A stretch of 64,000 bases of DNA, taken from assembly GCA_963779755.1 (NCBI GenBank), contig CAVZZO010000001.1, positions 352,001 to 416,000 of the forward strand, read 5' to 3'. The translations under genes and the position numbers were made by a program. Below, piece after piece: positions 18,153 through 32,169 of this stretch (within the stretch, counting starts at the first letter, position 1; each line of letters opens with the position of its first letter). This DNA is from an uncultured Gemmatimonadales bacterium. Lineage in GTDB: Bacteria; Gemmatimonadota; Gemmatimonadetes; Gemmatimonadales; GWC2-71-9. Below the pieces are notes generated by a model. It was not told where the DNA came from. It saw only the letters and a program-made list of their open reading frames with translations, and did no database searches.

Positions 18153-18196
18153 AGCGGCCGGCAGGGGCGCGGCATGCCGCGCCCCTACCGGCCGCT
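18153..18196. repeat. REP-like palindrome between convergent genes
   Basis: Perfect 24-bp AGGGGCGCGGCATGCCGCGCCCCT core, extended by AGCGGCCGG/CCGGCCGCT. Confidence 0.8.
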
Positions 18197-18562
18197 CCGC
18201 TCCATCAGCTGCAGCAGCTCGCGGTACATGGCTTCGGCCTGGTCCGGGTCGCCGGAGCGGATGGCCTGGGTGGCGCAATGCCGGAGGTGGTTCTGCAGCA
18301 GCGCGCGGGACACACTGCGGAGCGCCTCCTGTACCGAGGCCACCTGGGTCACCACGTCGGTGCAGTAGCGCTCTTCCTCGACCATTCGCTGCAGCCCGCG
18401 CACCTGGCCCTCGATGCGCTTCAGCCGGTTCTGCACCGACCGTTTCAGCGCCGGATCGACTCCCACGGCATGTTCCCCGTCGCCCGGGCGGACGCCGCAG
18501 GCGCAGGCGGCGCTCGTACTGGCCAGATCTCCCCGGCGGGTTCCGTTACTGTTCGCGTTCAT
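18185..18562 (-). CDS. csoR: CsoR/RcnR family metal-sensing repressor
   Basis: NRLKRIEGQVRGLQRMVEEERYC..HLRHC (C-H-C Cu ligands); in the copZA operon. Confidence 0.92.
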   Translation of the reverse strand: MNANSNGTRRGDLASTSAACACGVRPGDGEHAVGVDPALKRSVQNRLKRIEGQVRGLQRMVEEERYCTDVVTQVASVQEALRSVSRALLQNHLRHCATQAIRSGDPDQAEAMYRELLQLMERSGR

Positions 18563-18577
18563 GTGCTCTCCACTGGA

Positions 18578-18652
18578 AGGAATCGGGAATCGGGAGTCAG
18601 GGTGTGGTGCTGTCCCTGAATCCCGACTCCTGATTCCTGATTCCTGATTCCT
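18578..18652. repeat. Inverted heptamer arrays (GGAATCR / YGATTCC) between copA and csoR
   Basis: AGGAATCGGGAATCGGGAGTCAGGG ... CCCGACTCCTGATTCCTGATTCCTGATTCCT. Confidence 0.85.
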
Positions 18653-18655
18653 CCC

Positions 18656-20980
18656 TCAGGCACTTCTCAATCTCAACGAGTTGGACACCACGCTGACGCT
18701 GCTCACCGCCATGGCGGCGGCGGCCATGGCCGGCGAGAGCAGCAGGCCGAGCGCGGGATAGAGGATGCCCGCCGCCACCGGGATGCCGACCACGTTGTAG
18801 ATGAAGGCCCAGAAGAGGTTCTGCCGGATGACCCGCAGAGTCTGCCGGGCCAGCCGGATGGCCCGTTCCACCCCGCGCAGGTCGCCCTGCATCAGGGTGA
18901 TGGCGCCGGTTTCCATGGCGACGTCGGTTCCGGTGCCCATGGCAATACCGACATCGGCCTGGGCCAGCGCCGGGGCGTCGTTGATCCCGTCGCCCACCAT
19001 GGCCACGACGAGGCCCGACTCCTGGAGCCGTTTCACTTCGCGCAACTTGTCCTGCGGCAGCACTTCTGCGATGACCCGATCGGCTCCGATCTCGCGTCCG
19101 ACCGCCTGGCCAGTGGCCCCGCTGTCGCCGGTGAGGAGAATGACCTGGAGCCCGAGCGCGTGCATCCGCTCCACCGCCTCCCGGCTGGTGGGCTTTATGG
19201 GGTCGGCCACGCCGAGAATGCCGATCAGCTTCCCCGCGCGGGCGACATAGACCGGGGTGCTGGCGCTGGCCGCCAGCCGGTCGGTATCGGCGGCGGTGGC
19301 AGGATCCACGCCGTGTTCCCGCATGAGGGCGGCGTTGCCAACCATGATTACGTCGCCGCCCACCTTACCGCCGACACCCTGCCCGGGATAGAGCGTGAAG
19401 TCGCGGGCGGGAGGGAGGCTGATCCCGTCATGCTCGGCGGCGCGGACGATCGCTTCGGCCAGGGGGTGTTCGCTCAGCCGGTCCACCGCGGCGGCGGCGG
19501 CGAGCAACTCGGGCGCGGCAATCCCGTACGGCAGCACGCTGGTCACGGCCGGCTTGCCCTGGGTGACCGTCCCGGTCTTGTCGAGCACGACGACGTCTAT
19601 CTGAGTCGTGCGCTCCAGTACCTCGCCGCCCTTGATGAGCACGCCCAGCTCCGCGCCGCGGCCGGTCGAAACCATGACGGCCGTCGGCACCGCCAGCCCC
19701 ATGGCGCAGGGGCAGGCGATGATGAGCACGGTGACGGCGGCGATCAGGGCATGCAGGTAGTTCGGCCCCGGGCCGAAGTCGTACCAGATGACGAAGGTGG
19801 CGATCGCCAGGGACATCACGACGGGCACGAACACGGCGGCGATGCGGTCGGCCAGCCGCTGGATGGGAGCCTTGGAGCCCTGGGCCTCCTGCACCAGCTG
19901 CACGATGCGTGACAGCATGGTGTCGGCCCCCACGCGGGCGGCCTGGAAGCGGAAGGCCCCGTTGCCGTTGAGCGTGCCGCCGACCACCTGTGCGCCCGGC
20001 TCCTTGCGCACCGGCATGGGCTCGCCGGTGAGCATGGATTCGTCCACGCTGCTGGTGCCTTCGGTCACCACGCCGTCCACCGGAATCCGCTCCCCCGGCC
20101 GTACCAGGATGAGATCGCCCACCCGGAGCGTTTCGACGGCGACGTCGATCTCCCGGCCATCGCGCACTACGCGGGCCGTGGTGGGCCGGAGGCCGATCAG
20201 CCGCCGGATGGCCCCAGACGTCCGCCCCTTGGCGGTGGCCTCCAGCAGGTTGCCCAGCAGAATGAGCGCGATGATCCAGACCACGGCCTCGTAGTACACC
20301 TGGGGGGTCACGCCGTGGGCCGCGAACCAGCCTGCCCCCAGCGTCATCGCCGCGCTGAAGAGAAACGCCGCGCCGGTGCCGACCGCGATGAGGGTGTTCA
20401 TGTCGGCGCTGTGGTGGCGGAACGCCGCCCAGGCCCGGACGTAGAAATGCCGGCCCGCCCAGAACACTACCGGCAGCGTGACGCCCAGCAGCACCAGCCG
20501 CAGCACTTCTGGGGGGAGTGCAAAGACGGCGGGGAAGACGCCCTCGAGCCAGCGGCCGACCGGCATCATGAGCCGCATCAGGGGATCGGCCGTGCCGCCC
20601 TCGGACTGCATGAGCGGTATGGACAGCAGCATGGTCAGCACCGCCGCCACCGCGCTCACGATGAGCTTGCGGCGGAGGAGGGTGATCTCGCGCGCGCGTT
20701 CCTCGTCCTGTTCGGCGACCCGCGCTTCCGGTGTGCTCGCTCCGGCCGGCACGGAGGATTCGTAGCCGGTATCCCGGATGGCGCCGACCAGCTGCTCGGG
20801 GGTTACGACCGCGGGGTCGTAACTGACCGTCGCCGAGCCGGTCATCAGGTTGACGTTGGCGGAAACGACGCCGGAGGACTTCTCCAGGGCACGCTGCACC
20901 CGGGCGCTGCAGGCGGCGCAGGTCATGCCGCCGACGGGCAGGGTGCAGGTCTCGGGGGTGGGCGTCAGCGTGGAGCTCAT
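18656..20980 (-). CDS. copA: Cu(I)-translocating P1B-type ATPase
   Basis: GMTCAAC HMA domain, [29 protein letters not shown]. Confidence 0.96.
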
Positions 20981-20987
20981 CAGGGGA

Positions 20988-21107
20988 CTAATGGTGAGGC
21001 GTGAGGGGTGAGGCGTGGTTCTGCCGATGGGTTCCCAGGAAATACCAGAGAACCCAGGTGATCAGGGCGACCCCGGCCAGCGTGACGATAATGCGGTCCA
21101 GGCTCAT
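20988..21107 (-). CDS. 39-aa single-TM peptide between copZ and copA (not in ORF track)
   Basis: [42 protein letters not shown] overlaps copZ TGA and the stop lies 7 nt before the copA ATG. Confidence 0.7.
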
Positions 21108-21319
21108 GACTGGCTCAGGGGGAGGGCGTTGTAGCCGACTTCATTCAGGGAGTTGCAGATGGCTTCGATGCTGGTCTGTGACTCGTCGAAGGCTACTTCC
21201 GCCTGGCCCAGCTTGACGCTCTTCGTCTGGACTCCGGGCATCGCGGCCAAGGTCTTGTTGACGGTATTGAGGCAGTGCCCGCAGCTCATGCCCTGGATAT
21301 GAAGCACCAGTTCCTTCAT
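21104..21319 (-). CDS. copZ: Copper chaperone CopZ (HMA domain)
   Basis: 71 aa, IQGMSCGHC. Confidence 0.92.
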   Translation of the reverse strand: MKELVLHIQGMSCGHCLNTVNKTLAAMPGVQTKSVKLGQAEVAFDESQTSIEAICNSLNEVGYNALPLSQS

Positions 21320-21379
21320 GGAGTTACCCTCGGCGTTGGGGTGACGGGGCCCGTATCAGTCCCGGGCCTCACGCCCTGA

Positions 21380-21408
21380 ATCGTAAATAGGGGTGGGGGG
21401 TATGTCAA
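21380..21408 (-). promoter_or_regulatory. Sigma70 promoter of the cop operon with CsoR-type C-tract operator in the spacer
   Basis: TTGACA-17 bp-TACGAT; spacer region ATACCCCCCACCCCTAT (C-tract flanked by ATA/TAT). Confidence 0.75.
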
Positions 21409-21457: not shown

Positions 21458-22303
21458 TCAATCCGCGGCGGCGAGGCTCGCGGCGTCCGGCGCGCGGCTG
21501 CTCAGCCGCCGGCCGATATAGGCCAGCAGCAGCAGCAGGCCGAACATGCAGACGATGACCGGCCCGGTGGGGAGATCGTACCGGAAGGAGAAAGCCAGCC
21601 CGCCCGCCGAGGCGACCAGGCCGGTGAGCCAGCTGAGCGCGACCAGGACCCGCTGGCTGCGGCTGAATTGGAACGCCACGGCGGCCGGCACCACCAGGAA
21701 GGAGAACACCAGGAGCACGCCGGCGATGGGGACGGAGAAGGTGATCACGATGCCGAAGGAGAGATAGAAGAGGAAGTCCCACCAGCGGATGCGCCACCCC
21801 AGGCCCAGGGCTTTCTCCGGCTCGAAGGAGATGGTGAGGAAGCGGCGGCGCAGGGCAAAATGGAACAGCCCCAGCGCGGCGTAAATGATGGCCAAACGGA
21901 TGATGGTGGGCCAGGTGACCCAGAGGAGGCTGCCGACCAGGATGTCCTTGATGGCCTCGCTGCCGCGCGGTGCCTTGTCGGCGACGAGTATGGCGGCGGC
22001 GGAGGCCACGACATAGACGATGCCGATGATGGCCTCCTGCGGCACCCGGCCCCGTTCGTGGGTGCGGGTCAGGCTGAAGATGAGTGCGCCGATGGAGGTA
22101 AAGGCCAGGGCGTAGATGAAGGCGGTGGTGGAATCGGGCATGGCGCCGGCCAGCACCGCCACCGTCGAGCCCAGCGCCGCCATCTGCGCCAGGGAGAGAT
22201 CCACGAAGATCACCTCCCGGGCAATGATGTGGAGGCCCAGATAGGCGTGGATCGCCACGATCACCATGCAGGCCACCAGGGGCGGCAGGATCAGGTCGAG
22301 CAT
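21458..22303 (-). CDS. Zn/Mn ABC transporter permease (ZnuB-like)
   Basis: IFVDLSLAQMAALG, EAIIGIVY, GVLLVFSFLVVPAA, DLPTGP. Confidence 0.85.
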   Translation of the reverse strand: MLDLILPPLVACMVIVAIHAYLGLHIIAREVIFVDLSLAQMAALGSTVAVLAGAMPDSTTAFIYALAFTSIGALIFSLTRTHERGRVPQEAIIGIVYVVASAAAILVADKAPRGSEAIKDILVGSLLWVTWPTIIRLAIIYAALGLFHFALRRRFLTISFEPEKALGLGWRIRWWDFLFYLSFGIVITFSVPIAGVLLVFSFLVVPAAVAFQFSRSQRVLVALSWLTGLVASAGGLAFSFRYDLPTGPVIVCMFGLLLLLAYIGRRLSSRAPDAASLAAAD

Positions 22304-22333
22304 CGAGGGTCCTTTCGGGGAGCGGGCGGCCGG

Positions 22334-23380
22334 CTACTTGAATACGGCGGTGAGGCCGTTGACCCAGGTATTGACCAGATCGAAATAGGTGTCGACGCCG
22401 GGCGCGCCCTGGGTGTTCTCGGGGACGATGACGGCCGTGGCACCGGTCTTCTGCGCCACCTGCTCGACGGCGCTCCGCGGGTAGTAGTTGGCGGAGAACA
22501 GCGCGGGAATATGGCGCGCCTGCATCAGGCTGATCACCTCCCGGACGTGCCTCGGCGTGGGCGGGATGCCCGGTTTCGGCTCGACGAAGGCGATGCAGGG
22601 AATGCCGAACCGGTCGCTGAAGTACACCCATTCCCGGTGGTAGCAGACCATTTCCTTCCCCCGCAGGATTTCCGTCTGCTTCAGCCAGCCGCCCAGCCGG
22701 TCGCTCAGCGGCCTGCCCTGGTACTGCTTGCCGCCCACGAAATCGAGAAACTTGTCGCTTCGCAGCAGGTCGAGCGTGGTCTCCGGGGTCAGCAGCTGCA
22801 CCAGATCGGAGCCGACCGTGGCCTCCAGAACCCGGCGCTCAAAATCCTTTTCACGCTGGGTGAAGAACCCGGCGTCCGCCGGTGCGATCCGCTGCAGGCC
22901 GGTGAGGATGTTCCGGGCGATGATGATGCCGTTGACCGGGTCGGTGTGAATGTGCGGGTTGCCCTCGGCGTGGATATCCCCCTGCGAACGATCGGTGGAC
23001 GTGGGGATCTCCAGCAGGTGGATGCCGGTGTAGGCCGTCACATACCCGGGGCCGCCCTCGATGACCTTGCGGTTGTTGGCCCGGTCGAGCAGCGGCGGGA
23101 CCCAGAGCTCAAGATCGAGCCCGGTGGTGACGAACAGGTCTGCGTTGCGCAGAATGGCAACGAAACTCGGCTTGGGCTGAACGAAATGCGGATCCTCGTC
23201 TCCCTGGGCGATGGCGGTGACCGTGCCGCGATCGCCCACGATCTCCCGGGCAATGGCGGCGTAGGTGGTGAGGCTGGTGACGACCCGGAGCGGGGCTTTT
23301 CTGGAGTGGGCAGAGGGGGCGGAGTCGGCGCTCATCAGCCCGATCGTCGTCGCGGCCGCCAGCAATGTCTGAAGTAGCAT
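22334..23380 (-). CDS. Zn/Mn ABC transporter substrate-binding protein (cluster A-I)
   Basis: DEDPHFVQPKPS, GDIHAEGNPHI, YH, EPKPGIPPTPRH. Confidence 0.9.
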   Translation of the reverse strand: MLLQTLLAAATTIGLMSADSAPSAHSRKAPLRVVTSLTTYAAIAREIVGDRGTVTAIAQGDEDPHFVQPKPSFVAILRNADLFVTTGLDLELWVPPLLDRANNRKVIEGGPGYVTAYTGIHLLEIPTSTDRSQGDIHAEGNPHIHTDPVNGIIIARNILTGLQRIAPADAGFFTQREKDFERRVLEATVGSDLVQLLTPETTLDLLRSDKFLDFVGGKQYQGRPLSDRLGGWLKQTEILRGKEMVCYHREWVYFSDRFGIPCIAFVEPKPGIPPTPRHVREVISLMQARHIPALFSANYYPRSAVEQVAQKTGATAVIVPENTQGAPGVDTYFDLVNTWVNGLTAVFK

Positions 23381-23411
23381 GTCGCTCTCCTGAAATACGG
23401 CCCGGGGGCCG

Positions 23412-24806
23412 TCAGTAGGTCTCGTGCTTGTGGGGACCCATGGCCCAGACGACCTGGAGCGTCAGGGTGTTGTCCGATGAGCCGTCCTGCATGCGGTGGT
23501 GCTGCCCCTGCAGGCGGAGGTAGACGAATTCGCTTTCCCACCAGGTAATGACCGGGGTGAGCATCCATTCGTCGGCATAGGGGCCGCGGGGTGCCTCGAC
23601 GTAATCGTACCGGGCGCCCAGGACCCAGCGCTGCCCGGCCCTGGCCTGCACGTCGGCGAACATGCCATAGCGGCTGCTGCGCGCCCCCGCCTCGCGGGCG
23701 TGCAGGCGGTACCCCTCCAGGCGCAGCGTCACATCACGCCGCGTTCCCGCCTCGGGGGGGCGCCAGGTGAACCGGAAGTCGGCGCCGAGAATGTTGCTGG
23801 TGAGGCTGCTGTCGCGGTTGCTGCCGACGGCGCCGGTGAAGCCCAGCTGGGCGTAGCTGCTGCGGGAGAGTTGCCAGAAGTTCTGCAGCCGAGCGAGTCC
23901 CACGGGCTGTGCGCTGCCGGCCAGGAAGGGGTCGCTGGCGGTGGTGGTACCCTGCAGCCACAACTCGTGCGCACCGCCGGCCAGGGACAGTGGCAGCAGG
24001 CTGTAGACCGAGATGCCGACCCCGGCCAGGCCCTCCGAGCCGAAGAACCGCTGATACACCAGCGGGTATTCGGTCTCCGGCAGAGCGTGCAGATGCCAGC
24101 GGTTGAGGTCTCCCACCTCCTGGCGGAACTTGCCGACGTCCAGCCGCAGCTTGCCGGGAAGGCCGGACCAGTAGATGTAGCCTTCCTCCACCCCGACTTC
24201 GTCCTGCTCGAAGGTGAGGAAGACCTTGGTGTTGGAATAGGGATCGAGAGAAGATTGAAAGGCCAGCTCGAACTCCCGCGCGTCGAAGTTGTTCCGCTGC
24301 ACCCCGCGGTCTTTGGCCGAGATGCGGATATCGCCGGTGGCGCTGATCTCCGGATTGAAGCTGTTGAGATTGCGCTGCTTGCTCACGAACTGAGTGCCGC
24401 GGGCCCCCGCATCGCCGCGGGCGGCCGGCTGCGCCGCTGCATCCCCGGCCGCCCCGGCGGCGGCGGCGCGCAGGGCCGCCAGGTCATCCGCCCCGCCGGT
24501 GTCGGCGGCAAGCGAGGGCGCGGCGGGAGCACAACGGGCTTGTTGCAGCCGGGCAACCCGGTCGCGCAGGCGGCGCAGCGCCGAGCTCATCGAGTCGGTG
24601 GCGGCATCGCCGGTGGGGCCCGGCAGCTTGAGCTGCAGAGGACCCCGGGGACAGCTGCCGGCGTCGAGTGAATCGAGCCGGGCCTGGAGCTGCTCTACGC
24701 CGTGCCGGAGGGAGTCGAGTCCGGCGGCGGGTTGCTGGGCCTGCAGCGCGGGTGCGGCGCCACTCAGCAGTGCCGCCAGCGCCAGAACGCCTGATGATGT
24801 ACGCAT
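23412..24806 (-). CDS. Outer-membrane beta-barrel/porin of the type associated with Zn ABC uptake
   Basis: Signal peptide, coiled coil, FNPEIS, REFELAFQSSLDPY, NRWHLHAL, C-terminal MGPHKHETY. Confidence 0.72.
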   Translation of the reverse strand: MRTSSGVLALAALLSGAAPALQAQQPAAGLDSLRHGVEQLQARLDSLDAGSCPRGPLQLKLPGPTGDAATDSMSSALRRLRDRVARLQQARCAPAAPSLAADTGGADDLAALRAAAAGAAGDAAAQPAARGDAGARGTQFVSKQRNLNSFNPEISATGDIRISAKDRGVQRNNFDAREFELAFQSSLDPYSNTKVFLTFEQDEVGVEEGYIYWSGLPGKLRLDVGKFRQEVGDLNRWHLHALPETEYPLVYQRFFGSEGLAGVGISVYSLLPLSLAGGAHELWLQGTTTASDPFLAGSAQPVGLARLQNFWQLSRSSYAQLGFTGAVGSNRDSSLTSNILGADFRFTWRPPEAGTRRDVTLRLEGYRLHAREAGARSSRYGMFADVQARAGQRWVLGARYDYVEAPRGPYADEWMLTPVITWWESEFVYLRLQGQHHRMQDGSSDNTLTLQVVWAMGPHKHETY

Positions 24807-24946
24807 GTTGTCTCCCAGCCTGTGCGGAGTCCCCCGCAAGCGTCTTTGCGGAGCTCCCGCGCTTCGTCATCCCGGCGGTTCCTGCCGGTGCATTTCCACC
24901 GCCGCGCCTCTCTGGCGACGGGGGTGGAGGGGCTGCAGATGTCGAG

Positions 24947-25297
24947 TCAGACCAGGAAGGAGGGAGGGGCTCGGGAGAGGGTACTGGTATGGATCGTGAC
25001 CCCCGACCACCAGATGATCTCCGGGGAAGTGATCGGGAGGATACGCGTTTCGGGGAGGACGATGGCCCCGGAGGCCACCTGCCAGACGTGACGGGGGACG
25101 GACCACGCCAGGCCGAGGAGACAGCGCTCGGCGTGGCAGCCGCCCTCGTCGGACGATTCGAAGTGCGGACCGACGGCCTGTTCGGCGTGGCCCCGATGGT
25201 GGGCGAAGGCGTCGAACACCGGCACGCCCAGACTGCTGCCGACGAAGGCCAGCAGGAGGAGCAGGGCGAGGGCGCGGCGAGCCGAGCGGAAGCGCAT
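24947..25297 (-). CDS. Secreted His/Cys leader protein with C-terminal RAPP motif (DUF2946/CruR-like)
   Basis: 116 aa: signal-like N-terminus, AHH..PH..CHAERC, ends LSRAPPSFLV; paralog at 31110..31448. Confidence 0.78.
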   Translation of the reverse strand: MRFRSARRALALLLLLAFVGSSLGVPVFDAFAHHRGHAEQAVGPHFESSDEGGCHAERCLLGLAWSVPRHVWQVASGAIVLPETRILPITSPEIIWWSGVTIHTSTLSRAPPSFLV

Positions 25298-25380
25298 GGT
25301 CAAGCGCAAGATAGCCGGGCGGCCGGGGCCGGAACACCGGGACGGCATACCCGTACGACGGTGGTCCGGCCCCACGGGAT

Positions 25381-28300
25381 TCAGACCTCCAGCCGGTCGC
25401 CGTCGCGGGCGACCACGGCATAGAGCGCGGGCATCAGCAGCACACTGATGAAGAGCCGGGAGAAGAGACCGCCGACGATCACCAGGGCAAAGGGCTTCTG
25501 CGAGTCCGATCCCACGCCGGTAGAGAGCGCCGCCGGCAGCAGGCCGAAAGCCGCCACCAGTGCCGTCATCATGATGGGCCGGAGCCGGAGCACGGCGGCG
25601 GTGCGGGTGGCTTCGGCGATACTGGAACCGGCCCGGCGCAGCTCGTTGGCGTAGGAGATGTAGACCACCGCGGTCTGCACCGAGACGCCGAAGAGGGCGA
25701 GGAAGCCGATCCCCGAGGACACCGAGAAGGGAGTCCCGGTCACCGCCAGTGCCACCAGGCCGCCGATGGGGGCGGAGAGCACGACGCCGGCCACGGTAAT
25801 GAAGGGAAACTTGAAATTGCTGTAGAGCGCAAACAACAAGAGGAAGATGATGAACAGGGTCAGCGGCACGATGATGCGGAGCTGGTGGCGTGAGCTGGTG
25901 TATTCCTGGTACTCGCCACCCCAGACTACCCGATACCCGGCGGGCAGATGGACGGTGGAGGTCACCTGTCGCTGGGCGTCCTGCACCGCGCCGGCCAGGT
26001 CGCGGCCTTCGACCGAGTACTGTACCCCGATGAACCGGGCGTTATCCTGGCGGTAGATGAACGAGGCTCCGTTGGAGAGCGCAATGGTCGCCAGCTCCTT
26101 GAGCGGGACCTGCGCCCCGCCCGGCGTGGCCACGAGAATGTTGCCGATCTCCTCAGGCGTCTGCCGGAAGCGCGGCTGGAGGCGGACCACCAGGTCGAAG
26201 GTCCGCTCTCCCTGCACCACGCCGGTAGCCGACACCCCGCCCACCGCCGCTTCGATGAGGCCGTTGATGTCATCCACGCCCAGGCCATACCGGGCGATCT
26301 TCGAGCGGTCCACCTGGATCGTCAGGCTGGGCTGGCCCAGCTCCTGGACCAGGGTGACGTGGCGGATGCCGTGCACCCGCTGGAGCACATTGCGGATCTG
26401 CTGCCCCTCGGTCTGCAGCGTGTCGAGGTTGGGACCGAACACCTTGACGTCCAGGGCGCTCTTGAGGCCGGTCTCGGCTTCGTCCACCGCATCCTCGGCG
26501 GGCTGGGTGTAGTTGAAGATGATACCGGGAAATTGCCGCAGCCGCTGATTGATGTCGTCGATCAGCTGGGCCTTGGTGTGGATCTTCCCCTGCCATTCAC
26601 CGTACGGCTTCAGCCCGACGTAGAACTCGGCGTTGAAGAAGCCGGTGGGATCGGTGCCGTCGTCGGGCCGGCCGTGCTCGGATGCGACCACGGTCACCTG
26701 GGGATAGGAGCGGAGAATGGCGCGAATCCGCGGAACGATCTGCGACGATTCTTCGAAGGAAATCGTGTACGGCATGGTGGCGCGAACCCAGAGCGCTCCC
26801 TCATCCAGGTGAGGCATGAACTCCGCGCCGATCAGGGGCAGCAGGAGCAGCGAGAGGGCGAAGATCGCCACCGAGCCGCCGATGGCGGGCCAGCGGTGCG
26901 CCAGGGTCCAGTCGAGCGAGCGTTCGTACGAGCGGCGCAGTGCCTCATAGAACGGGTTCCGCCGCTCCCGCACGCCGTGGCGCAGAATCCAGGAGCAGAG
27001 CACGGGCACCAGGGTCAGGGTGAGCAGCAGCGAGCCGATCAGCGCGAAGATCGTGGTGTCGGCCATGGGGCGGAAGAGCTGGCCCGAGGGACCCTTCAGC
27101 ACGTAGATAGGCAGGAAACCGGCAATGATGACCGCCACGGCATAGAAGATGGGCCGGTCCACCTCGGCGGCGGCCGCCGCGATGACCTCACGCAGGCGAT
27201 ACTGGGTGCCGTACCTGAGGGCGAGCTGGCGGTGGATGTTTTCCACCATCACTACCGCGCCGTCCACCAGGATGCCGAAGTCTATCGCGCCGATGGAAAG
27301 CAGGTTGGCCGGAATGTGCCGCAGGTCCAGGCAGATGAAGGCGAAGAGCAGGGCGATGGGTATGGTCACCGCCACGATCAATCCGCTCCGGATGTCATAG
27401 AGGAAAAGGATCAGCACGGCGATGACCAGGCTGATCCCCCGCAGCAGGTTGTCTTCCACCGTGCGGGTGGTGAGTGCGATCAGGTCGCTGCGGTCGTAGA
27501 ACGGATGGATCTTCACATCCTTCGGCAGAATGTGCTCGTTCAGTTCGCGGGTCTTCGCCTCCACCTGCTTGAGCACGGTCTGGGCCTGCTCGCCTTTCCG
27601 GAGCAGGATGACGCCTTCGACGGCATCGTTCTGCGCGTTGTAGCCGAACTGCCCCAGGCGCGGGGCATGGCCGATCACCACGCTGCCGATGTCCTTGACC
27701 AGCACGGGCGTGCCGTTGTGGACCGCGAGCACGGTGTTGCCGATGTCGTCCAGGGTGTTGAGCCGCCCCAGGCCGCGCACGTAGTAGAACTGGCCGCCCT
27801 CGGAGTAGAACCCGCCGCCGGCGTTGCTGTTGCCCTTGCCCAGGGCATCCACGACGTCGCTCACCGCCAGCCCGGCGGCCGCCAGGCGGGTCGGGTCGAT
27901 CTGGACCTGGTACTGCATGGTCTCGCCGCCCAGCGGGGAATCGTCGGCCACACCGGGGACCGACCGGTACTGCCGCACGATGACCCAGTCGTTCAGCACC
28001 TTGAGGTCCATCGCCGTCCGGTCGGGACTCTGCAGCACGTAGCGGTAGACCAGGCCCGAGGGAGAGAAGAGCGGCGATACGCCGGGGGCGACACCATCGG
28101 GCAGCTCCGCATCGGGCAGGCGTTCGAAGACCTGTTCCCGGGCGAAGTAGTTGTCGGTGCCGTCCTCGAAGGTGAGCCGGATGTTGGAGAGGCCGTAGAG
28201 CGAGATGGACCGGATGACCCGCAGGTGGGGCAGCCCGTTCATCTCGACTTCAAGCGGCACGGTGATGAGGCGTTCCACCTCCTCCGCGGCGTGGCCCGGC

Positions 28301-28497
28301 CACTGGGTGGTGATCTCCACCATCGGGGGAGAGAGATCGGGATAGGCGTCCACCGGCAGCCGGGTGAAGGACCAGATGCCCCCGCCGATCAGAATGAGCG
28401 CGCAGAGCACGACCAGGAACCGCTGATTCAGGCTGGTCCCGACGATCCGGTGAATGAACGAGGTGGCCGGCGGCGTCCCGGCGGGGCTCCCGGTCAC
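25381..28497 (-). CDS. CusA/CzcA family heavy-metal efflux RND permease
   Basis: LPVDAYPD, EEVERLIT.PLE, GAIDFGILVDGAVVMVEN, RLRPIMMTALVA; 1038 aa. Confidence 0.95.
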   Translation of the reverse strand: MTGSPAGTPPATSFIHRIVGTSLNQRFLVVLCALILIGGGIWSFTRLPVDAYPDLSPPMVEITTQWPGHAAEEVERLITVPLEVEMNGLPHLRVIRSISLYGLSNIRLTFEDGTDNYFAREQVFERLPDAELPDGVAPGVSPLFSPSGLVYRYVLQSPDRTAMDLKVLNDWVIVRQYRSVPGVADDSPLGGETMQYQVQIDPTRLAAAGLAVSDVVDALGKGNSNAGGGFYSEGGQFYYVRGLGRLNTLDDIGNTVLAVHNGTPVLVKDIGSVVIGHAPRLGQFGYNAQNDAVEGVILLRKGEQAQTVLKQVEAKTRELNEHILPKDVKIHPFYDRSDLIALTTRTVEDNLLRGISLVIAVLILFLYDIRSGLIVAVTIPIALLFAFICLDLRHIPANLLSIGAIDFGILVDGAVVMVENIHRQLALRYGTQYRLREVIAAAAAEVDRPIFYAVAVIIAGFLPIYVLKGPSGQLFRPMADTTIFALIGSLLLTLTLVPVLCSWILRHGVRERRNPFYEALRRSYERSLDWTLAHRWPAIGGSVAIFALSLLLLPLIGAEFMPHLDEGALWVRATMPYTISFEESSQIVPRIRAILRSYPQVTVVASEHGRPDDGTDPTGFFNAEFYVGLKPYGEWQGKIHTKAQLIDDINQRLRQFPGIIFNYTQPAEDAVDEAETGLKSALDVKVFGPNLDTLQTEGQQIRNVLQRVHGIRHVTLVQELGQPSLTIQVDRSKIARYGLGVDDINGLIEAAVGGVSATGVVQGERTFDLVVRLQPRFRQTPEEIGNILVATPGGAQVPLKELATIALSNGASFIYRQDNARFIGVQYSVEGRDLAGAVQDAQRQVTSTVHLPAGYRVVWGGEYQEYTSSRHQLRIIVPLTLFIIFLLLFALYSNFKFPFITVAGVVLSAPIGGLVALAVTGTPFSVSSGIGFLALFGVSVQTAVVYISYANELRRAGSSIAEATRTAAVLRLRPIMMTALVAAFGLLPAALSTGVGSDSQKPFALVIVGGLFSRLFISVLLMPALYAVVARDGDRLEV

Positions 28498-29627
28498 TGG
28501 TTCTCCGCGAACCGCAGAAACAGTCCGCCCTCGGCCACGATGCGCTCGCCCGGCGCCAGGCCGGAGGTGATTTCGTAGCTGTCATCCACGTGCGAACCGA
28601 GGGTGATCTGGCGGCGCTCGAAGCCTTTTCCTGAATCGGCCACAAACAGGAACGGCAGGTTATTCTCGTCGCGCTGCACCGCCGAGGCGGGCACCAGAAT
28701 GCCCCGGCGGCCGTGACGCGAGTAGATGGTGACACGGACGAACATATCGCGCTTGAGGACATCGCCAGGGTTGGGCGTCAGGATCCGGACAGAGGTCGCC
28801 CGGGTGTCCGGGTCTACCAGCGAGGCGACGTAGGTGACGCGCCCGGGGAAGACGCGGTTGTCGTCGGTGGGGCTGATGCTGGCCGAGTCGCCTTCGGTCA
28901 CGTCGGGCAGGTCGGATTCGAAGACGTTGGCCATGACCCAGACGGTGCCCAGGTCGGCAATGGTGAAGCAGGGTGTGGCGCCGCTCTCCAGCAGCTGGCC
29001 CGGGGTGATGAGCTTCTCCACCACCACCCCGGCGATGGGCGCGCGGATCACGGCCTGGGCGGCCTCGACCGCACGTCCCTGGCGGATGTCTTCGATGGTG
29101 GCGGAGTCGACGCCGAGCGAGCGCAGCTGCTCCCGTGCGGCATCCCGGTCGGCGGCGGCCGAGGCGGCGTCCGTCTGGGCCTGTTCCAGATCCCGCCGCG
29201 CCAAGGCGTCGGTGTCGAAGAGTTTCTGGTCAAGGTCGGCGATGTGCTGGGCGTTGTGCGCGGCCACCACCGCCTTGCGGTAGTCGGCGATGGCAGTGGC
29301 AAAGTCAGGGGACGCGACCACCGCCAGGGCCTGGCCCGCCGCCACGTGGGCGCCCGGCTGGACCAGGATACGTACCACCGGGCCCGAGATGGGCGCGAGT
29401 ACCTGCGTGCTGCGGTCGCCGTTGAAGGCCACGGTGCCGGTGACCGTGACGGACGGCTGAAAGGCCACGGGGGCAACCGGCGTGATCCGGAGCTGGTGGC
29501 GCTGGGCCGGAGTGAGAACGAACTCCGAATCGGCCGCGCCGTCGCCGCCGGCCGGCTCGGCACGGTGGCAGGCGCCCGCCAGCAGCAGGCAAGCGAGGGC
29601 GGCAAGAGCCCCGATCCTAGTGGTCAT
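28494..29627 (-). CDS. RND efflux periplasmic adaptor (CzcB-like lipoprotein)
   Basis: Lipobox LAGAC, IRAPIAGVV, IADLGTVWV.ANVFESD, SGLAPGERIV. Confidence 0.9.
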   Translation of the reverse strand: MTTRIGALAALACLLLAGACHRAEPAGGDGAADSEFVLTPAQRHQLRITPVAPVAFQPSVTVTGTVAFNGDRSTQVLAPISGPVVRILVQPGAHVAAGQALAVVASPDFATAIADYRKAVVAAHNAQHIADLDQKLFDTDALARRDLEQAQTDAASAAADRDAAREQLRSLGVDSATIEDIRQGRAVEAAQAVIRAPIAGVVVEKLITPGQLLESGATPCFTIADLGTVWVMANVFESDLPDVTEGDSASISPTDDNRVFPGRVTYVASLVDPDTRATSVRILTPNPGDVLKRDMFVRVTIYSRHGRRGILVPASAVQRDENNLPFLFVADSGKGFERRQITLGSHVDDSYEITSGLAPGERIVAEGGLFLRFAENQ

Positions 29628-30939
29628 GCTGTTCTCCAGACGAGACGGTATCGAGCGGAGCGCCAATCGCGCGCTCCAGGTCGGCGCGGGCATCGTTGGC
29701 GGCGCCCAGGGCTTCGGCATACTGGCTTTTGGCGTCGAGCATGGTGCGACGGGCATCCAGCACCTCCAGGCTGGAGGACCCTCCCAGCCCGTAACTCTGG
29801 AGCGCGATCTGATAGGCACGGGTGGCTTCCGGCAGCAGCTCGTCACGCAGGTACACTGCCTGAGCGAGCGCGGTGGCGGCCGTGGCATAGGTGGCGCGGA
29901 CATCCTGCTCCACCTGGGCTTCGAGGTCGCGGTAGGTGGCCGCCAGCTCCTGCTCGTGGTGTTTCGATTCGGCAACCTCTCCGCCGATATGATTCCAGAA
30001 GAAGAGCGGGAGGGTGAACCCGATCGACGTGGTGTAGCTGTTGGGGGCTCCGCTCACCACGTTCTTTTCGACGCTGACACCCAGGTCGGGAACCCAGAAC
30101 TCCTTGGCCAGCGAGGTGGCCGCGGCGGCCCCGGAGCGGACGCGGGCCAGCCCCTGCAACTCGGGACGGTCGCGCAGGGCAATGCCGACCAGCAGGGACA
30201 GCTCCGGCAGGCTGTCGGGGACGCTCAGGGTATCGGTGGTGGCGATGCCGCCACCTACCGTGCGGCCGAGGAGACGATTGAGGTTGGCCCGGGCGGTGGC
30301 GAGGTCACGCTGGTTGGCCAGCAGGTTGTTGGCGGCCTGGGCGACATCTACCCGCGCCTTGATGACGTCGAGGCGCGGCACGGTGCCTCCCTCGAAGCGC
30401 GCCTCGGTCTTCTTCAGAAAATCCTCCGCCAGCGCCTTGCCCTCCTCCAGATCCGACTGGTGCTGCAGCGCGACCAGAATGGCGTCATAGGTCTGCGCCG
30501 TCGCCGAGGTCATCTGCTGCACCAGCTGGACGTAGGCGAATTCGGTGCTGCCCACCTCCGCCCGGCCGATCCGGCCCAGGAGCAGGAACTTGGAGGGAAA
30601 GGGCAGGGTCAATCCGACGCTGACGTCGCTGCCGGTCCGGGTGCCGGGCTGGAAGGGCTTGGCCAGCCCGGCGTAGTCGCCCGCGATCTGGGGATCGGGA
30701 AAGGCGGTGAGCTGGACCTTCCGGGCCCGGGCCTGGGCGATCTGCTGCCGCGCTGCCTCGAGCGCCGGGTTGTGGGCCAGCACGCTGTCGATCGCCTGCT
30801 GCCGGGTCAGGGCCAGGGCGCCCGGCGCCCCGCTCTGGGCGCGGGCGGACCTGCCCACCACCACACTGCAGCCGAGTACGATCGCCAGGCCGCGCAGTCG
30901 TCTGAAGCCGGGGATCAGGTATCCCCGTTGGTGTCTCAT
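29617..30939 (-). CDS. TolC/CzcC family outer membrane efflux protein
   Basis: Two TolC repeats, LEVLDARR, ARADLERAIG. Confidence 0.9.
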   Translation of the reverse strand: MRHQRGYLIPGFRRLRGLAIVLGCSVVVGRSARAQSGAPGALALTRQQAIDSVLAHNPALEAARQQIAQARARKVQLTAFPDPQIAGDYAGLAKPFQPGTRTGSDVSVGLTLPFPSKFLLLGRIGRAEVGSTEFAYVQLVQQMTSATAQTYDAILVALQHQSDLEEGKALAEDFLKKTEARFEGGTVPRLDVIKARVDVAQAANNLLANQRDLATARANLNRLLGRTVGGGIATTDTLSVPDSLPELSLLVGIALRDRPELQGLARVRSGAAAATSLAKEFWVPDLGVSVEKNVVSGAPNSYTTSIGFTLPLFFWNHIGGEVAESKHHEQELAATYRDLEAQVEQDVRATYATAATALAQAVYLRDELLPEATRAYQIALQSYGLGGSSSLEVLDARRTMLDAKSQYAEALGAANDARADLERAIGAPLDTVSSGEQHDH

Positions 30940-31109
30940 GCCATCCCCTGTGTCAGGATGCTCCGGGTGAAGTCGCAGCATCCGTCGCGGCCGCGCCACC
31001 GCCCCCGCTAGGCCGGGAGCTGCACGACGGCGTGCCGGATGTACACCCTGCGGTCAACGTCCTGGGGGACGCCTGCCGCGTACCTCATGTCAGTTTGTGA
31101 TGGGAAACT

Positions 31110-31448
31110 TCAGACGGCGGGAGGGGCCCGGCTCTGCGTGGTGCGGATGGCGGCGGCCCGGGGGGGCAGCGGCGCCGGCTCCGCCTGGGGACGGGAAGCA
31201 AGCTCGGCCAGCGACTGGATGCCGGAGACGGACGCCCCCACCACCTGCGGCTGCATGGTGACCACACCGAGAACACAGTGCTCGGCGTGGTTGTGGCATC
31301 CTCCGGCGGGATCGTAGTGCGGCCGAAGCGGCTGCTGGTGGTCGGAGCCAAGATGATGGGCCAGCAGGTCAAATCCGGGCAGGCCGATGCCGCTCCCCAC
31401 AAACGCGGTGAGGAGAAGGAGGGCGGCCAACCTCTGGAAGCGACGCAT
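31110..31448 (-). CDS. Secreted His/Cys leader protein with C-terminal RAPP motif (DUF2946/CruR-like)
   Basis: 112 aa: signal-like N-terminus, AHH..PH..CHNHAEHC, ends QSRAPPAV. Confidence 0.78.
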   Translation of the reverse strand: MRRFQRLAALLLLTAFVGSGIGLPGFDLLAHHLGSDHQQPLRPHYDPAGGCHNHAEHCVLGVVTMQPQVVGASVSGIQSLAELASRPQAEPAPLPPRAAAIRTTQSRAPPAV

Positions 31449-31557
31449 GGCGGAGCAATGTAGTAGAACGCCTGCGGGGCTTACAACCCGTTGCACGCCG
31501 GCAGGTGCGGAATGCTCCCGGCACTCAAGACCCGCGAGACATCGGTCGGCTGCCGGC

Positions 31558-31604
31558 TTGACGAGCCGTTCCATCGTTGTAGCTTCAATGTATCTACATA
31601 GACA
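31558..31604 (+). promoter_or_regulatory. mazEF promoter/operator
   Basis: TTGACG-16 bp-TAGCTT followed by imperfect palindrome ATGTATCTACAT, resembling MazE operators. Confidence 0.5.
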
Positions 31605-31615
31605 GCAGGTTCAGG

Positions 31616-31855
31616 ATGTTAGCCCGTATTTCAAAGTGGGGAAACAGTTTAGCTGTGCGGATCCCCCGTGCCTTCGCCGCCGAGCTGGGCATTCAGGAGG
31701 GTGTGGAGGTGGAGATGTCCGTGGAGGACGGCCGCCTGGTGATCGCGCCGGCCCGGCCGGAGTACGGACTGGAAGAGCTGAGCGCCGGGATCACGCCGGA
31801 AAACCGCCACGATGAAACCGACTGGGGCCGCCCCACCGGTGGTGAGGTGTGGTGA
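31616..31855 (+). CDS. mazE: MazE/AbrB-family antitoxin
   Basis: KWGNSLAVRIP ... ITPENRHDETDWG.PTGGEVW. Confidence 0.93.
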   Translation: MLARISKWGNSLAVRIPRAFAAELGIQEGVEVEMSVEDGRLVIAPARPEYGLEELSAGITPENRHDETDWGRPTGGEVW

Positions 31856-32169
31856 CTCCCGACCGGGGAGACCTGGTATGGATCAGCACCGAGCCCCGGG
31901 ATGGGGGTCCCGTGTCCCGCCGACCCGCGCTGGTCGTTTCTCCGGCGCGGTATAATGAACGCTCCGGCCTGGCGCTTATGTGCGCCATCGCCAGCCGGGT
32001 GAAGGGCTATCCCTTCGAGGTGAGGTTACCCGACGGGCTACCGGTGGCCGGCGTGGTGTTGTCGGATCATCTACGCAGCACCGATTGGCGGGCACGCGAG
32101 GCGGAGATCATCGCTCGCGTTCCCGATCGCGTCACGGGAGAGGTTCTGGCCAAGCTCAAGCCGCTATGA
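31849..32169 (+). CDS. mazF: MazF/PemK-family toxin, degenerate active site
   Basis: PDRGDLVW, RRPALVVSP, KGYPFEV, DWRAR. Confidence 0.88.
   Translation: MVTPDRGDLVWISTEPRDGGPVSRRPALVVSPARYNERSGLALMCAIASRVKGYPFEVRLPDGLPVAGVVLSDHLRSTDWRAREAEIIARVPDRVTGEVLAKLKPL

Follow-up and report, generated by a model that had tools for sequence, protein, structure and literature searches.

Paired RAPP leaders ahead of a Zni/Zne-like efflux operon and a metal-import operon in a Gemmatimonadales bacterium: putative DUF2946-like arrest peptides, probably responding to zinc

Two copper-responsive arrest peptides with opposite outputs are the closest described relatives of the genes analysed here. In Bordetella pertussis, copper is reported to relieve the ribosome stall at the RAPP motif of CruR (Bp2923, PF11162), upon which Rho terminates transcription (PMC9426467; bioRxiv 2025.02.05.636593); 45 residues lie between its CXXC and RAPP (PMC9426467), arrest at RAPP has been demonstrated in vitro (PMC12992588) and the geometry of RAPP arrest has been described (PMC10951233). 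In Rhodobacter capsulatus, copper is reported to induce the stall of CutF, a secreted uORF product with a Cys/His site (CXXXC) and an EF-P-dependent PPP, and the downstream Shine–Dalgarno sequence (SD) is unmasked (bioRxiv 2025.02.05.636593). A survey of CutF-like proteins reported CusC/CzcC-type outer-membrane factors of RND systems as their commonest neighbours, followed by TonB receptors, described the members as neither all copper-specific nor iso-functional, and proposed Ni/Co sensing for clusters with His only (bioRxiv 2022.11.11.516240). DUF2946 has been linked to copper uptake (bioRxiv 072470). In Caulobacter crescentus, the DUF2946-annotated gene CC2720 lies directly ahead of a zinc-induced Zn/Cd RND operon (CC2720-czrCBA-zntA), which is reported to be Zur-activated in zinc excess, and a second DUF2946 gene of that genome, CC1775, clusters with a TonB receptor (PMC4176598).

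Two systems of Cupriavidus metallidurans also invite comparison. CzcI (pMOL30) is a small exported His/Cys protein ahead of an RND operon; it has CXXC and a RAPD, is reported to quench the pump as a protein, and czcI2 is leaderless, while induction of czcICBA is reported to be independent of CzcRS (PMC10127602). EDTA, but not metal shock, raises ZniCBA and ZneCBA, with ZniA/B up 2.5-fold in RNA and >10-fold in protein, a starvation response with a post-transcriptional component whose control is ascribed there to antisense RNA (PMC11647595). The locus described below bears on two questions: what sets whether the stall of a DUF2946 protein is released by metal, as in CruR, or tightened by it, as in CutF, and why Zni/Zne-like efflux pumps rise under metal starvation. 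The polarity question is posed here within one short locus, where a pump and an importer are each preceded by one of two paralogs that agree in their core ligands.

In the window, that is the whole stretch of 64,000 nucleotides that was analysed, the minus strand carries in this order leader 1, tolC, an adaptor gene, an RND pump gene, leader 2, and the genes of a porin, a ZnuA-like protein and an ABC-3 permease (Table 1). A sequence-only reading had proposed that two paralogous RAPP leaders head the two operons, and what it said of the leaders as genes held: the ORF of leader 1, whose translation ends TQSRAPPAV, was borne out, and so was its distance of 170 nt from tolC, which starts with an ATG at 30939 behind a GGGGA SD. 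Leader 2 ends TLSRAPPSFLV and has an alternative in-frame GTG start 5 nt past the RND stop. The paralogy and the shared motifs were likewise confirmed (BLASTP, 41/100 identities, E=7e-17). A Met-Ala-stop mini-ORF, ATGGCATGA, overlaps the tolC start right behind the SD (30936-30944, minus strand).

Table 1. Features of the locus, with positions in the window
Feature	Position	Strand	Basis or remark
Leader 1 candidate promoter TTGTAA-18-TACATT	31457..31486	(-)	sequence; -10 ends 8 nt before ATG, without SD
Leader 1 (P0001, 112 aa)	31110..31448	(-)	export segment, metal site, fixed-length spacer, RAPP at 107-110
Putative metal site of leader 1, codons of D27-x4-H32...H44...H54-x3-C58	31275..31370	(-)	conservation; metal binding presumed
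RAPP arrest codons of leader 1 (putative)	31119..31130	(-)	two Pro codons CCUCCC form an anti-SD-like word
Intergenic region leader 1/tolC, 170 nt	30940..31109	(-)	several hairpins and the tolC SD
TolC-family outer-membrane efflux protein	29617..30939	(-)	Pfam OEP 2e-52
Periplasmic adaptor, CzcB/CusB type	28494..29630	(-)	family-model matches
Divalent-metal RND pump, Zni/ZneA-like, DFG-D-EN TM motif	25381..28497	(-)	
Candidate -10 TATCTT, 10 nt before leader 2	25308..25313	(-)	
Leader 2 (P0002, 116 aa), importer-heading paralog	24947..25297	(-)	
Intergenic region leader 2/porin, 140 nt	24807..24946	(-)	predicted pairing of the porin ribosome-binding site with RAPP-to-stop codons
Outer-membrane porin-fold protein, conserved His-containing C-terminus	23412..24806	(-)	model pLDDT 81.5; Foldseek porins E ~1e-11
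ZnuA/AztC-like metal-binding protein	22334..23380	(-)	
ABC-3 (ZnuB/AztB-like) permease	21458..22303	(-)	

Leader 1 is not a mere chance ORF. Genome-wide (4.2 Mb), a profile of the leader family, built from the first matches, hits exactly two ORFs, leaders 1 and 2, and P0002 is the best full-length relative of leader 1 among 77 leaders. The profile retrieved 385 representatives at E<=0.001 and has matches in 60/151 genomes of the bacterial family and 84/251 of the phylum, the latter tally including the genome G253; the named relatives are Gemmatimonadales or other Gemmatimonadota. The five residues of the putative metal site are kept almost throughout 132 aligned members (D27 in 132, H32 in 130, H44 in 123, H54 in 131, C58 in 132). 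R107, P109 and P110 of RAPP are invariant (132/132), with the A in 121. The distance from C58+3 to RAPP is 45 residues in 102/132 members, leader 1 included, and 44-46 in 131/132; the length of the spacer is thus conserved like a ruler although its sequence varies. Selection on the sensor and arrest motifs, as had been suspected from the divergent spacer, is borne out by dN/dS ratios of 0.18 for the sensor and 0.11 for RAPP plus tail versus 0.33 for the spacer, in seven independent close pairs. An AlphaFold model of P0001 shows helices only, at a pTM of 0.36.

Leader 1 resembles CruR in its position as first gene of a metal operon with a long intergenic region (170 nt, 162 nt in CruR), in its export signal (a basic start and a hydrophobic helix at 2-18), in the 45-residue spacing, in a RAPP 2-4 residues from the C-terminus, in a C-rich end, and in having relatives followed by TonB-dependent receptors. 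It differs in the sensor, where CruR has CXXC and leader 1 has C58-x-x-G61 within a D/H/H/H/C site (the position C58+3 is never Cys, 0/132 members), in its host phylum, its leaderless-type promoter and its targets. It also agrees with the rules of the CutF-like survey (fewer than 150 aa, a signal peptide, PP in the last 15 residues, a same-strand gene within 1000 nt), with 112 aa, an export signal, PP at 109-110 and a same-strand tolC at 170 nt; in place of the CXXXC and PPP of CutF it has H-x3-C and RAPP, and metal is proposed to release its stall, not to induce it.

Against Pfam PF11162 (DUF2946), P0001 scored 17.4 bits (E=0.0078), under the gathering cut-off of 23.7, and P0002 gave no match; 19/132 members matched at E<=0.1 (best 6e-4), and the cut-off was exceeded by just two relatives, L148 (28.9) and L172 (25.0), both of them with CXXC. 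NCBIfam has no family for either leader. Intermediates nevertheless connect them to DUF2946: distant relatives have H-x3-C-x2-C at the sensor position, and 15/19 new relatives ahead of orthologous tolC genes have a true CXXC at the 44-46 spacing. An ESM Atlas search returned mostly Gemmatimonadota clusters, with DUF2946 on 11% of the members of one cluster, which we treat as a lead only. Because the tests by CXXC and Pfam cut-off failed although such intermediates exist, leader 1 is best filed, as far as its sequence tells, as a Gemmatimonadota variant of DUF2946 (CruR/CutF) with D-H-H-H-C in place of CXXC. That both leaders act in cis as DUF2946-like arrest leaders we hold to be very probable.

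The suggestion of an undescribed system does not stand, because DUF2946 leaders ahead of RND exporters and importers, with OEP-type neighbours and with the opposite outputs of CruR and CutF, are already in print; the exporter/importer pairing is known at the family level. Our literature search found no zinc-sensing and no Gemmatimonadota arrest leader, although the supplements of the CutF survey and the RAPP uORF tables of PMC12992588 could list such cases.

The mechanism that we propose is as follows. Leader 1 would be made from its own leaderless transcript and act as a CruR/CutF-type arrest peptide. When metal is scarce, the ribosome would stall at RAPP and keep tolC-adaptor-RND on, by freeing the ribosome-binding site (RBS), the default predicted for the family, and/or by shielding the C-rich leader end from Rho, the latter being the likelier route at leader 1. 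Zn(II) or, less likely, another divalent metal would bind D27/H32/H44/H54/C58, some 50 residues ahead of the stall site, and the folding so induced would pull on the chain, release the stall and turn the operon off. Leader 2 would act likewise on the porin-ZnuA-permease operon. That both operons are on together in metal (probably zinc) limitation is the reading that we favour over its rivals, at about even odds. The D/H/H/H/C site, which we take to be a His3Cys-type ligand set, together with the ZnuA/AztC-like and ZneA-like cargo, is what makes zinc probably the metal.

The start regions of the leaders suit leaderless transcription. A TAnnnT hexamer lies 4-14 nt before the start of 50/77 leaders, both of the window included, versus 5.3 in shuffles (maximum 12 in 500 shuffles), and an SD-like word precedes only 6/77; the hexamer so near the start and the rarity of SD words together indicate leaderless transcripts. 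A consensus promoter/terminator scan found nothing at either leader or in the tolC spacer, the candidate promoter of leader 1 being below its threshold. A search of sequencing runs listed no RNA run with this DNA, the best share being 0.14. As for Rho, its gene is present in the genome, and the C>G skew of the two leader ends is 0.21 and 0.31 compared with a background 95th percentile of 0.15, a skew partly due to Pro/Ala-rich codons.

The label of a CzcCBA-type exporter had to be revised. Among solved structures the RND protein matches ZneA best (755 bits, 544 for CusA), and in C. metallidurans CH34 it scores highest with the chromid pump beside ZneA (838 bits), which from this adjacency we infer to be ZniA, and with two others including ZneA (757), all above CzcA (705). 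It falls outside the starred clade holding CzcA in a quick tree that carries a long-branch warning. ZniCBA and ZneCBA (PDB 4k0e) are thus the closest characterised pumps, with a like TM motif, at only ~40% identity (42% to the CH34 pumps). Under the metal-limitation model we therefore regard the pump as Zni/Zne-like, induced by starvation and co-regulated with uptake, and not as an excess-induced CzcCBA.

The leaders were then considered with their cargo. Of 94 profile matches in the fetched loci 83 were kept, eight having been dropped for frameshift, length or lack of RAPP and three as duplicates. They precede a TonB-dependent receptor (37; Pfam-confirmed in 12/14 tested, the rest assigned by ORF length), a porin-ZnuA-permease set (28), tolC-adaptor-RND (17) or another gene (1). 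Starting from the cargo, a RAPP-type ORF was found upstream in 28/29 tolC loci (drawn from the 30 top-ranked of 48, the window included and the locus of G253, a genome flagged unpublished, left out) and in 46/50 porin loci (the 30 best plus 20 lower-ranked picks, from 70 genomes), one of the 46 being doubtful.

In one genome pair the cargo behind a like cassette is swapped. The loci L183 (G269) and L192 (G232) have a common upstream gene (80% nt) and agree from leader end through spacer to signal-peptide start (69% nt), yet L183 carries tolC and L192 a porin. Of six loci with RND gene, leader and importer in tandem, four have an importer leader that begins no more than 7 nt from the RND stop or overlaps it: at -1 in G135, +6 in G189 and +7 in G002, with an overlap of the RND end in G134. 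The first three have GAGG/GGAGG in the last RND codons ahead of the importer leader, and an SD so placed can link the translation of the RND gene to that of the ORF behind it. In all four a -10 at the leaderless distance is missing, that of G002 being at -42. Where such coupling exists, the importer could hardly be expressed without the pump. In the tandem loci of the window and of G125, in turn, the importer leader has its own -10. The conserved LEV-stop codons of the RND gene hold a GAGG/GGAGG SD in the window too (GGAGG, 25381-25392, minus strand), as they do in L056, L082, L097 and L137.

It had been supposed that the two operons would differ in metal threshold through CHNHAEHC in one leader and CHAERC in the other. 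The distribution of these forms does not support this, the exporter form of the window being typical of importer leaders and its importer form being the commonest exporter form: in a tally of 80 rows, one of them without motif, C-x2-H-x3-C (the CHNHAEHC type) was found in 1/17 exporters, the window's own, and 19/62 importers, and C-H-x3-C in 8/17 and 11/62. No alignment column separated the classes significantly (best p=0.011 of 382 tests, p-values being overstated by the relatedness of the genomes), and the cross-validated AUC for exporter versus importer leaders was 0.62, compared with a null of 0.45+/-0.11 reaching up to 0.65. On the leader tree the classes are mixed (24 changes), yet more clustered than in shuffles; the tree is a quick one on few columns with 40/77 forks open, and because of this poor resolution no order of events is claimed. 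An apparent excess of CXXC before exporters (15/36 versus 7/88) was rejected as a sampling artefact, porin-anchored sampling having given 15 CXXC in 46.

Folding with and without a stalled ribosome footprint, as the sequence-only reading had suggested, predicted a switch for leader 2 and the porin but no robust one for leader 1 and tolC. The RBS opening energy was compared in 76 of the 83 loci, seven with a frameshift or an unclear start having been set aside (start codons were chosen by a heuristic, three of them by hand); the results are all predictions at equilibrium for sequences that are GC-rich and related to one another. By these predictions the stall frees the RBS by >1 kcal/mol in 14/17 exporter, 20/24 porin and 29/35 receptor loci, and in 15/19 exporter and 28/32 importer loci of the new sets. 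The native sequence did better than synonymous recoding in 63/76, 16/19 and 24/32 loci, and exporter loci did not differ from importer loci (p=0.36). In importers the predicted pairing is densest between RAPP and the position just beyond the stop, and it is more diffuse in exporters; the SD pairs with the leader end in 10/17 exporters versus 53/59 importers, and 7/17 exporter spacers are of at least 150 nt. Whole-spacer folds had no greater stability than those of shuffled sequences (z -1.5, -1.9, +0.3 and -0.5).

For leader 2, the predicted gain in accessibility of the porin RBS from a stalled ribosome is +4.3 to +8.5 kcal/mol, and about 0 when base pairs may span no more than 100 nt. The tolC spacer of the window is an outlier in its 170 nt and in having the lowest opening energy of the exporter class: the predicted stall effect ranges from -3.0 to +2.1 kcal/mol by settings, being mostly negative with local folding, and at the 100-nt limit the stalled state would close the RBS by 0.3-3.0 kcal/mol. 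An SD-hiding stem-loop of the CutF type is predicted at most family loci and at leader 2, unlike leader 1. It should be noted that the polarity of the RNA switch does not by itself set that of the metal response, because CutF uses a stall that turns expression on for genes induced by excess.

The sequence-only reading held that one leader family ahead of both an exporter and an importer would need opposite outputs. Such a need is not supported by ZniCBA/ZneCBA, which rise under starvation, and the comparative evidence favours the same polarity. The alternative itself, with the pump on in metal excess (leader 1 being CutF-like, or its long spacer inverting the switch) and leader 2 CruR-like, is in our view unlikely but has points in its favour. 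CruR and CutF respond oppositely within one family, and the czrCBA of Caulobacter, induced by zinc excess, is headed by a DUF2946 gene (PMC4176598). In the window, the predicted closing of the tolC RBS at the 100-nt limit is in the same sense, the -10 of each leader makes uncoupling possible, and the DFG-D-EN motif would, by sequence, mark the pump as an exporter. Against it, no sequence determinant splits exporter from importer leaders, related genomes show the cassette swap and the translational coupling, and an inverted switch was predicted in 0/36 exporter loci, although in 3/17, the window's own included, with a longer folding window.

That the operons share a logic but respond independently to different metals (e.g. 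Zn versus Ni, Co or Cu) seems improbable. The non-invariant Cys is placed differently in the two leaders (C-x2-H versus C-H), the distribution of this extra Cys differs by class (chi-square p=0.002, with kin not independent), and Ni/Co sensors have been proposed among the His-only CutF-like clusters (bioRxiv 2022.11.11.516240). The five core ligands, however, are nearly invariant in every class, the extra Cys is missing from 33/79 leaders, and CXXC and HxxxC forms each occur ahead of both importers and exporters.

A protein function of the exported peptide in trans, as a CzcI-like periplasmic quencher or chaperone of the pump, with the operons under promoter control, is very improbable. CzcI does precede czcCBA and is reported to quench the pump (PMC10127602), and Fur-family and MerR-family regulators are encoded elsewhere in the genome. 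CzcI, however, gave no match to the leader-family profile (hhalign probability 0.24%) and has RAPD where the leaders have RAPP, which is invariant near their stop and at a fixed spacing; there is also selection at the nucleotide level, the first Pro codon of RAPP being CCT in 34/77 leaders versus 79/824 other Pro codons. Least probable is a SecM/ApdP-type secretion monitor that couples envelope-protein synthesis to Sec capacity, the His/Cys residues being structural only: RAPP peptides with export signals are reported to monitor Sec/YidC (PMC10951233, PMC12992588) and every downstream gene product is a Sec substrate, but the downstream genes of each of the three classes encode metal or TonB-dependent transporters, and the His/Asp/Cys set is kept at a fixed distance.

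As to dedicated regulators, the claim that none is adjacent stood for CzcRS, MerR and Fur-family proteins, absent from the 13 neighbouring proteins scanned, with the qualification that csoR lies in the next operon. A missing adjacent regulator is weak evidence either way, because induction of czcICBA needs no CzcRS. The genome has two Fur-family genes (L135:1795-2259 and L136:1642-2091), which score best with the Fur and PerR models; no clear Zur, of the kind that activates the Caulobacter operon, was found among them, a weak result because both are below the model cut-offs. We tentatively suggest that zinc homeostasis in Gemmatimonadota may work largely without Zur, interchangeable His/Asp/Cys arrest cassettes acting as starvation switches that turn on porin-ZnuA importers, TonB receptors and a Zni/Zne-like RND efflux pump together.

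If this suggestion is true, these leaders would be the first zinc-sensing arrest peptides, and the genomes would be independent support for an efflux pump that serves metal supply. Should the two operons move together, an efflux pump joins the starvation programme and metal sensing by arrest peptides reaches beyond copper to a His-rich site, probably one for zinc; should they move apart, the leader pair localises the determinant of polarity.

Some further observations concern the sensor and the surroundings of the locus. Eleven distant porin leaders (L218-L235) lack both CXXC and H-x3-C at the usual position; examples are C-x3-H-x4-C and H-x-H-x2-C, graded sensor variants at a fixed RAPP distance. 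In G012, a different small ORF comes after the RND gene (L099:1341-1715, minus strand); its Cys/His-rich exported product ends QAPPP, and it is possibly another CutF-like leader. The porin of the window has no Pfam or NCBIfam family, and its C-terminus is a conserved GPHKHETY-like tail. An ATPase gene is absent from the porin-ZnuA-ABC-3 operon (21458-24806), and none is apparent in the related loci L042-L100; in related porin-ZnuA-ABC-3 loci a leader-TonB receptor unit is often directly next.

Downstream lies a separate operon (18185-21408, minus strand) with copZ (21104-21319), a 39-aa membrane ORF, copA and csoR, the last a CsoR/RicR-type repressor gene at 18185-18562 in an operon with its own promoter. 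Between the permease gene and this operon there are a hairpin with T5, which the consensus promoter/terminator scan did not list, and then a TTGACA-17-TACGAT promoter. The latter overlaps a TAC-C6-CTA-like element which, we presume, resembles a CsoR operator. On the other side, a mazEF-like toxin-antitoxin pair (31616-32169, plus strand) runs divergently to leader 1; there is a palindrome at about 31590-31602, and the pair may be the edge of a mobile metal island.
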